Shown here one piece after another: positions 4,000 through 17,521 of a DNA stretch of 64,000 nucleotides; positions within the stretch are counted from its first letter, which is position 1; each line of letters opens with the position of its first letter. The position numbers were made by a program, and so were the translations under genes. A model generated the notes under the pieces. It searched no databases and was not told where the DNA came from. It saw only the letters and a program-made list of their open reading frames with translations. This DNA comes from Naegleria gruberi (Eukaryota), in the NCBI GenBank assembly GCA_000004985.1, contig GG738871.1. The stretch is one strand, 5' to 3'.

Positions 4000-4599
4000 T
4001 TATTTAATAATTAATAAACAGTAATATTTAAATATTGATGATGTTTGTTGCTCTGTTCTTATTAATCGTTTGAATAATTCTTCCTGAATCAAATCATTGG
4101 ACTTTTTCAGAGCATTTTGTAATTCTTGTAATTGTTTAACACTCGAAAGGGATGAAATTTCATCTGCTGAAATGGTTGCTCTCTTTACAAGATCAGATTT
4201 CAATTGATTATTCTTTGAATTTTCCATTTCTAATAGGTTACATTGATTCTTGAATGAGGTAAGCAACATTGTTATCATTTCAAATCTTTCATTCATTGGT
4301 GTTTGCATCAATTTGTTTTTCATTTCTGTATTAATTTCTGGTGCCTCAATGCCCTGGTTGTAATATTCCAAGTTTCGTTTGTGTAGTTTCTTATAACCTT
4401 CTTTAGTTTCCTCGGTAGCTACCTTCCACATATTGGCCAATTCTCTTTGGATTTCCTTTTCGGAATAGGTCTCACCAAGACGAGCCCTAACTTTTGCTCT
4501 GTTATCTAAATTTCAGTTTACCAAAATTAATTCAGAGTTTGAATTAATAAACTGCTTACCATTACAAAAGAGAATATATGAAGAACAGGGTTTTTTCAT
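4000..4599 (-). CDS. HMG-box DNA-binding protein with a coiled-coil tail. Two exons (4599..4560 and 4505..4000) with a 54-nt GTAAGC..AG intron at 4506..4559.
   Basis: The spliced product 'MKKPCSSYILFCNDNRAKVRARLGETYSEKEIQRELANMWKVATEETKEGYKKLHKRNLEYY' matches the HMG-box consensus (P.S.Y..F....R.......E......W....E.K..Y). Exon phases are consistent: exon 1 contributes 40 nt ending in phase 1. Confidence 0.6.
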
Positions 4600-13912: not shown

Positions 13913-14386
13913 ATGAGAGTACTCTTAAAGTTCAGAACCACTGCCAGATTATTCAACTCTTCCAAATCAACAACAAACACCTCGCCAGTTACCTCTGCTG
14001 TAGCTTCCGAAACCAAGTTTGAACCAATTTGTGCACAAAAAGGACCGTACGTTGTTACTTTGGAGGAAGGAAAGAAATATGGTTGGTGTACATGTGGACT
14101 CTCTGAGAAACAACCATTTTGTGATGGAAAGTAAGTTTGTGATAAATATTATCGGAACATCGGAATTGATTCTTGAAAATTTTGATAACATAGACATAAA
14201 GGAACTGGAATGAAGGTATGTTTAAATTATTTAACAATTTCAATTAATTGAGGTGTCATCTTTAATTAGTCCCTTAAATTTGAAGCTACACCAGAGTTGT
14301 GTGATAAGGAAGTTTATCTTTGTGGATGTAAACAATCCAAAAATCCACCATTCTGCGATGGTAGTCATTCCAATTTGTCCGAATAA
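13913..14386 (+). CDS. CISD3-like protein with two CDGSH iron-sulfur domains and an N-terminal presequence. Three exons (13913..14130, 14194..14215, 14270..14386). The middle exon is a 22-nt micro-exon.
   Basis: Exon 1 ends '...WCTCGLSEKQPFCDGK' followed by GTAAGT. The micro-exon encodes '(K)HKGTGMK' and is flanked by ..ATAG and GTATGT. Exon 3 encodes 'SLKFEATPELCDKEVYLCGCKQSKNPPFCDGSHSNLSE*'. Splice phases are 2, 0 and 0 and are consistent. The result reproduces the C.C..S...P.CDG.H spacing of both CDGSH motifs and the inter-motif 'TG..PLKF' segment. Confidence 0.65.
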
Positions 14387-14490: not shown

Positions 14491-15243
14491 CTAATCTTGA
14501 TACCAAAATACGACTGAAAATCTTTCTGCATGATCTGGATGATTTTTCTTCTGTATTTCATTTCTAATTCCATGCACATATTTATATCTGATATCATCAG
14601 CCAGAATAACTAAAGATCCATTTGGTAGTAAAACTCTAAACTCATCTGGACATTCCTGCACTTGTTCAATTGTAAAATTGGAAGGAGGATCAATCATGAA
14701 ACTCATTGTAGCATCATTTCCGAAAGATAACATTCCAATTGTTGGACCCAATCCTCTACTATCAATATGAAGAGGACATCCACTTTTTTCAATATCTTGA
14801 TAATGATTAATTTGAATAGTATTCGGAACAATGTTTGGATAGTCTGAATTCTCCAAACTGGACAGGGACATTACTGATGGACAAGGTCTCTTTCTCTTGT
14901 AGAAGAATGGTTTCAATGTTTGAATGTAGGCGAAGAGAGTTGGAAAGTACAAATCGGCACACTTTTCAACTTGACTCTCCGAGTGTACATTAAAGATGGA
15001 TCGTTTTAATTGTGGATTGGCAAGGAAGGGTTCATGTTTTTGCAAGTTTTTCAATTCATTCCAAATGGTTTGAGAGTCTTTTGGAGAGATGAAAGTAGGA
15101 TGATAGAGTGCTGTTGGTGGTGTTTGTTCTAAATCGGATTTTAATATTTGAACAGCAGGATTATTGGCAAGAAGAGGAGCAATAAAGTTGGTTGACGAAG
15201 CTGCTGATGTTTGCTTATTAATGAGTCCTTTGAGAAAATTCAT
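14491..15243 (-). CDS. AlkB-family 2OG-Fe(II) dioxygenase.
   Basis: 'NHYQDIEKSGCPLHIDSRGLGP' contains the H.D motif. 'LVILADDIRYKYVHGI' carries the distal His. 'RFSVVFW' is the Arg..S motif that binds 2OG. The ORF is 250 aa and starts at ATG 15243. Confidence 0.7.
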   Translation of the reverse strand: MNFLKGLINKQTSAASSTNFIAPLLANNPAVQILKSDLEQTPPTALYHPTFISPKDSQTIWNELKNLQKHEPFLANPQLKRSIFNVHSESQVEKCADLYFPTLFAYIQTLKPFFYKRKRPCPSVMSLSSLENSDYPNIVPNTIQINHYQDIEKSGCPLHIDSRGLGPTIGMLSFGNDATMSFMIDPPSNFTIEQVQECPDEFRVLLPNGSLVILADDIRYKYVHGIRNEIQKKNHPDHAERFSVVFWYQD

Positions 15244-15886
15244 TTTTTTGAATTGTTAATCTTGGGCAATTGGATGAAAAGAACATAAGTAGGCAATTTG
15301 AAAATATCCCTTCCAAAATCGCTGGAGACTTTTTGTCCACTTTTCACCATCAGAATTTTTTCCACCGGCTAGCTGGCAAAGTGGGAGGACAGCTTCCATT
15401 TCAACTTCTAATTCGATCATCACAACAATAAAAAATATTCGTGATGGTGGTAGTAAGCAAGAAAACAATTTAGAGCAATAACTTATTATTACTTCATGAA
15501 AACAAAAACTAACAATAAATTGCTTTATCACAACATCATTGGATAATATTGAGTTTTTTTCTTCTGTTTATTGTTCAAGTTTGCTATTGAAAAAGGTTTG
15601 TAGCTGGTGGACAAGCGTAAGACTGGGGCATCGAAATAGAAAGTAAATTAGAAGCCGTCCTCTCACTTTGCAAGCTCGGGGCTGGAAAAAAATCAAGCGA
15701 AAATTTTATCGTTTTTCGTCACAAAAATGAAGCTTGAAAATGGAAGGGATATTTGAAAACCATCTTGGTTGTGTTGACATGAAGTTTATGTTAAATATCA
15801 ACAGTATTCAAAGTCCGCATTGGATTAAAAAGAAGTTAAAATGTAAATTTTGAATTTTTGAATTTATATGGTGTGTTTTAATTTAT

Positions 15887-17448: not shown

Positions 17449-17521
17449 GCCCCGCTAGCTCAGTCGGTAGAGCGTTGGACTTTTAATCCAACGGTCGTGG
17501 GTTCGAGCCCCACGTGGGGCG
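17449..17521 (+). tRNA. tRNA-Lys (anticodon UUU).
   Basis: The 73-nt sequence gccccgc/ta/gctcagtcggtagagc/g/ttggacttttaatccaa/cggtc/gtgggttcgagccccac/gtggggc/g folds as a cloverleaf. It has a 7-bp acceptor stem (one G-U), a D-arm, the anticodon loop cTTTTaa and a GTTCGAG T-loop. No CCA is encoded, which is typical for eukaryotes. Confidence 0.92.

Follow-up and report, generated by a model that had tools for sequence, protein, structure and literature searches.

Within the 64,000-nt stretch of Naegleria gruberi DNA analysed in the current study (the window), the plus-strand segment 13913..14386 carries a small gene in which three exons are separated by two short introns. Exon 1 (13913..14130, +; 218 nt, 41% G+C) begins with the ATG and encodes an N-terminal extension (residues 1 to about 36) and the start of a first CDGSH module (including residues C59, C61, C70, D71 and G72). 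Its 3' end reads ...CCA TTT TGT GAT GGA AA, where the final AA opens codon 73, which is broken in phase 2. Intron 1 (14131..14193, +; 63 nt, phase 2, 27% G+C) extends from GTAAGT to ATAG, and its bases 2–4 (14132..14134) form an in-frame TAA. It is followed by an exon of 22 nt, ACATAAAGGAACTGGAATGAAG (14194..14215, +; 36% G+C), and then by intron 2 (14216..14269, +; 54 nt, phase 0, 20% G+C), which extends from GTATGT to TTAG. Exon 3 (14270..14386, +; 117 nt, 37% G+C), which ends with the TAA stop codon (14384..14386), contributes the SLKFEA linker strand as well as the second CDGSH module, with C98, C100, C109, D110, G111, S112 and H113.

Flanked by the acceptor ATAG and the donor GTATGT, the 22-nt exon is internal and falls within the size range of micro-exons (about 30 nt or less). 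A sequence-only reading of this DNA had described the same exon, with the same flanks and with introns of 63 and 54 nt, and its description is exact to the base; the phase-2 GTAAGT donor that it placed after the first motif, PFCDGK, directly follows 14130. The length that it gave for the product, 129 aa, has to be corrected, as the CDS joined in silico is 357 nt with its stop codon and specifies 118 aa.

The 118-aa product is identical to a protein deposited as EFC43778.1, XP_002676522.1 and UniProt D2VHC6 (NAEGRDRAFT_68169, "predicted protein"). This exact match to an N. gruberi record identifies the window as nuclear DNA of that species, and means that the model, micro-exon included, is already public. 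Agreement with the annotated exon structure was judged from the identity of the proteins and from the fact that one sole GT-AG model reproduces that protein. The exact gene model is already present in GenBank, RefSeq and UniProt, and its recovery is a correct, ordinary finding. Since the RefSeq model may itself be computational, it does not constitute independent proof. The protein cluster to which the 118-aa protein belongs contains no transcript-derived copy, its members being the genome-derived model and a 73-aa ORF fragment. RNA-seq of N. gruberi exists (PRJEB23822; PMC6142364), and a literature search on micro-exons in Naegleria found nothing relevant.

The 73-aa fragment (P0002) represents exon 1. 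It was produced by a prokaryotic gene caller from contig L003 (1936..2157) of the ENA metagenome assembly ERZ929261, and is the cluster representative of the cluster that contains the true 118-aa protein. The ORF list of the window also splits the gene, as the sequence-only reading had remarked, here into ORFs of 73 aa and 29 aa. That reading further expected automated gene finders to miss a micro-exon of this kind, which is not the case here, since it is annotated in N. gruberi, N. lovaniensis and Willaertia magna.

Two other features of the window may be described. The spacer between an AlkB-like gene (14491..15243, minus strand) and RPL13 includes about 446 nt (15305..15750) that are missing from contig L003. 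This insert has 19-nt terminal inverted repeats (TTTGAAAATATCCCTTCCA / TGGAAGGGATATTTGAAAA) and 65-nt subterminal inverted arms with 78% complementarity, and has the appearance of a strain-polymorphic, MITE-like insertion. Its end sequence was not found a second time in the window. Scans for tRNAs and Rfam families gave only one RNA-family match in the window, a tRNA-Lys gene (anticodon UUU; 17449..17521, plus strand), which is unrelated to the micro-exon.

The encoded tandem-CDGSH protein

The codon of K73 is completed by the first base of the micro-exon, which then specifies H74, K75, G76, T77, G78, M79 and K80. H74, the codon of which occupies 14195..14197, is the predicted His ligand of cluster 1 and is kept in all 120 homologues of the alignment. 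Across the same 120 sequences, K75 is found in 92, T77 in 83 and G78 in 58, while 70 of them have S at position 73, 23 have K and 21 have A. The stretch KGTGMK corresponds to the turn into the strand that links both modules. The earlier proposal that this exon supplies the His of the first motif, together with the linker that follows it, is borne out by the invariance of H74 and by the alignment of HKGTG to a bacterial protein of solved structure, 3tbn_A. The data support a requirement for the micro-exon in the in-frame joining of both CDGSH motifs, with the motif 1 His and the KGTG linker as its contribution.

The Pfam zf-CDGSH family matches the product in two stretches, with 68.8 bits against a cut-off of 29.5. 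The best sequence matches among solved structures are 3tbn_A, a type 6 CISD of Magnetospirillum (1.3e-26), 6z1p_AV of Tetrahymena (5.7e-19), and 6avj_A, the human CISD3/MiNT protein (7.5e-17). The description of the gene as CISD3-like with two CDGSH motifs, made originally from the letters of the sequence, agrees with these scores, and the alignment to CISD3/MiNT proteins that was suggested with it does recover the human protein. The alignment to 3tbn_A is free of gaps across both splice junctions (query PFCDGKHKGTGMKSLKF vs PFCDGSHKGTGLAPVAY; PFCDGsHKGTGl), and 6z1p_AV carries the same PFCDGKHKGT as Naegleria.

Seven types of CISD were defined by Lin et al. (2011), who named N. gruberi among the eukaryotes with type 6 CISD (PMC3174974). 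The type 6 consensus, [hydrophobic-CXCXX(S/T)XXXP-hydrophobic-CDG(S/T/A)H], occurs twice per chain (PMC3174974). Motif 2 of the Naegleria protein, LCGCKQSKNPPFCDGSH, fits this consensus fully. Motif 1, WCTCGLSEKQPFCDGKH, fits it except for a Lys at the S/T/A position, giving CDGKH where the consensus has CDG(S/T/A)H, a variant that is present in 23 of the 120 homologues. The eight ligand residues, C59, C61, C70 and H74 of the first site and C98, C100, C109 and H113 of the second, are all invariant in a 53-sequence alignment (A1).

An AlphaFold2 model built on the 53-sequence alignment has pLDDT values of 92–96 over residues 41–110 and of 51–58 over the N-terminal 30 residues. Foldseek comparison of the model with the PDB returned 3tbn (1.3e-9; TM by target 0.85) and 6avj_A (1.5e-8; TM 0.80, rmsd 1.1 Å over 82 columns), and the predicted fold is the monomeric pseudo-dyad fold seen in 3TBN and 6AVJ. 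Judged from its sequence, the product is a tandem-CDGSH ("type 6", CISD3/MiNT-like) protein, of a family that is well characterised. With MmCISD of Magnetospirillum magneticum (3TBN) and human CISD3/Miner2/MiNT (6AVJ) it shares a single chain that carries both CDGSH motifs in tandem, all eight Cys/His ligand residues and the predicted fold, at 45–50% identity over the domain. It would hold two [2Fe-2S] clusters at 3Cys-1His sites, each cluster being bound, most likely, via three Cys and one His.

The N-terminal extension of about 36 residues, which coincides with the region of low pLDDT, is basic and rich in Ser/Thr (6 K+R, 1 D+E, 13 S+T), and is missing from the short homologues of about 80 aa. 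It may represent a mitochondrial presequence. Human CISD3 reaches the matrix by means of a targeting sequence (PMC7050145), and the Naegleria protein, if targeting is judged from composition alone, most likely acts in the mitochondrion as well.

Whether such a protein is free in the matrix can be questioned, as tandem-CDGSH domains like that of Naegleria also form part of large complexes (6Z1P chain AV, 7W5Z chain FS and 9FQ8 chain 4T). With the splice model accepted as correct, the product could serve as a structural component of the mitoribosome or cytochrome c oxidase, and not as a free, MiNT-like cluster-transfer protein of the matrix. The match to the Tetrahymena mitoribosome (6z1p_AV, see above), with which it shares the CDGKHKGT form of motif 1, favors such a role, as do matches to Tetrahymena complex IV (7w5z_FS, 3e-11) and to a complex IV subunit of Perkinsus marinus (6.9e-8; sequence match 9fq7_4T, fold match 9fq8_4T). 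The Tetrahymena and Perkinsus subunits are, however, longer (121–188 aa vs 118 aa) and have extensions that tie them into their complexes, whereas the Naegleria protein, known here from its sequence, is closer to 3tbn_A, a free bacterial protein, in both sequence and size. Its predicted structure lies within an rmsd of 1.1 Å of human MiNT, compared with 17.8 Å for 6z1p_AV. A subunit role is regarded as unlikely, and a free, MiNT-like protein is the preferred reading; the splice model is unaffected by this question.

Alternative splice models

One- and two-intron GT-AG models were enumerated for the locus, with introns of at least 30 nt and an open reading frame that begins with the ATG (13913) and closes with the stop codon ending at 14386. 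This gave 771 open-frame models (31 with one intron and 740 with two), which were scored against an HMM of 110 short homologues, none longer than 95 aa and each called as a single continuous ORF. The proposed model ranked at the top with 130.5 bits, the next best reaching 120.8 bits and the median being 43.4 bits. Because it has the best score among 771 models, the arrangement of junctions is considered to be beyond chance. Both CDG.H motifs are present in only five of the 771, all of which have the intron 14131..14193, and none of the 31 single-intron models retains the pair. The claim of the sequence-only reading that the micro-exon connects the two CDGSH motifs in frame is upheld by this ranking, and by the absence of gaps from the 3tbn_A alignment.

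The choice that is left concerns the boundaries of intron 2. Four further models have an open frame and keep both CDG.H motifs, among them one with an intron at 14220..14285, which would extend the internal exon to 26 nt, and one with an intron at 14216..14296, which would start exon 3 later; the proteins specified are 105–114 aa in length. They match the homologue profile with 110.5–120.8 bits, but all four fall 10–20 bits under the proposed model and lose residues of the conserved SLKFEA strand, in which F84 is kept in 100 of the 120 homologues. The positions of the GTATGT donor (14216) and of the acceptor that precedes TCxxTxAAATTTGA are, in addition, shared with N. lovaniensis and Willaertia magna. 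Other boundaries for intron 2 are, on these grounds, very improbable, and 14216..14269 is retained as its position. Homology and comparative genomics (see below) both point to the three-exon junctions given above.

The predicted products of incorrect splicing are all defective. In an unspliced transcript, translation would end after K73, leaving a first site with three Cys and no His. With intron 2 retained, a stop codon is reached after 11 further codons, giving a protein of 91 aa without the second module, and skipping of the micro-exon causes a frameshift that leads to a product of 141 aa without the second motif. Since each of these products is truncated or frameshifted, both introns must be removed if a functional two-cluster protein is to be made. 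The micro-exon would, by the same sequence evidence, be essential for the CDGSH iron-sulfur protein of N. gruberi.

Conservation of the micro-exon in related species

The orthologous loci of N. lovaniensis (P0003) and Willaertia magna (P0004) were compared with that of N. gruberi. At each of them exactly one three-exon GT-AG model yields the annotated protein. The lengths of exon 1, intron 1, micro-exon, intron 2 and exon 3 are 218, 63, 22, 54 and 117 nt in N. gruberi, 200, 204, 22, 107 and 162 nt in N. lovaniensis, and 161, 39, 25, 39 and 114 nt in W. magna. In all three species, intron 1 is in phase 2 and interrupts the codon preceding the His ligand, while intron 2 is in phase 0 and precedes the Ser of SLKF. 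The donors, six out of six, are GTAAGT or GTATG(T/C). Between N. gruberi and N. lovaniensis the micro-exon is 82% identical, and the flanking introns only 30–45%. Synteny is also kept, with the genes for the AlkB-like 2OG-Fe(II) oxygenase and RPL13 located downstream on the opposite strand. Contig L003, which is N. gruberi-like (98–99% identical), differs within the gene by five substitutions, all of them in exon 1, with both introns, the micro-exon and exon 3 unchanged.

That the locus is not spliced as proposed, and either gives the 73-aa exon 1 product alone or is a decaying pseudogene, can hardly be entertained. The 73-aa ORF product is on record from the nearly identical contig L003, but it contains neither the second module nor the invariant His. 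The micro-exon and exon 3 are in frame and conserved in three species while the introns diverge, and L003 itself is unchanged from intron 1 through to exon 3.

The introns that flank the micro-exon are not universal in the family, because a homologue on the eukaryotic contig L004 (JGI metagenome 3300062347, Ga0606064_0149; 4001..4393) consists of one continuous ORF. This intronless homologue is 130 aa in length, has CDGKH as its motif 1 and carries a basic N-terminal extension of its own; the contig is gene-dense, and the neighbouring genes are PTEN-like, RING and PTH2 genes. The Naegleria gene, in which two introns set off a 22-nt exon, differs in this respect from both the L004 homologue and the short homologues of about 80 aa, which are continuous ORFs. 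The best 120 homologue matches include N. lovaniensis and Willaertia magna but no orthologue from N. fowleri, the gene model of which may be absent, fragmentary or lower-ranked.

Splicing mode and significance

Taken together, it is held with high confidence that NAEGRDRAFT_68169 of N. gruberi is the gene of a 118-aa tandem-CDGSH protein, most likely with two [2Fe-2S] clusters and most likely mitochondrial, and that it is interrupted by two short introns placed around a 22-nt exon. The micro-exon would be included constitutively. The introns are short (54–63 nt here, and 39–204 nt in the relatives) and have strong GTAAGT or GTATGT donors, and each is probably recognised across the intron. Two modes of recognition, intron definition among them, are described in a published account (PMC5762160), and intron definition probably applies here, to go by intron size. 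Under intron definition there would be no practical lower limit to the length of the exon in between, and 22 nt would present no obstacle.

The Naegleria exon is like the constitutive micro-exons of short-intron genomes, being a 22-nt internal coding exon that keeps the frame and is flanked by canonical GT-AG introns of 54–63 nt. The neuronal micro-exons of animals are subject to regulated inclusion according to tissue type, and nothing suggests such regulation in Naegleria. Unlike the neuronal kind, the Naegleria micro-exon specifies a predicted metal ligand that is invariant, and it is kept in three vahlkampfiid species.

A more speculative proposal, which we regard as decidedly improbable, is that the micro-exon acts as a splicing checkpoint, with intron retention or exon skipping being regulated, for example under iron limitation or anaerobiosis, or, separately, that the CDGKH protein is built into the mitoribosome or complex IV of Naegleria as an Fe-S subunit. 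A checkpoint role is conceivable because the micro-exon both carries the His ligand and sets the frame; if true, regulated intron retention or exon skipping would switch off production of the two-cluster protein. Constitutive inclusion remains the preferred reading.

For the handling of eukaryotic contigs, the locus illustrates how ORF calling in the prokaryotic style cuts the gene down to a 73-aa fragment that is without the ligand, while the correct eukaryotic gene model, with its micro-exon, is recoverable from the raw sequence. The value of the finding is otherwise that of quality control. For the biology of these amoebae its interest is mild, and evolutionary: it provides a clean example of what would be a constitutive micro-exon in a short-intron genome, a metal-ligand exon of 22–25 nt that has been held across Naegleria and Willaertia while the introns around it changed five-fold in length.
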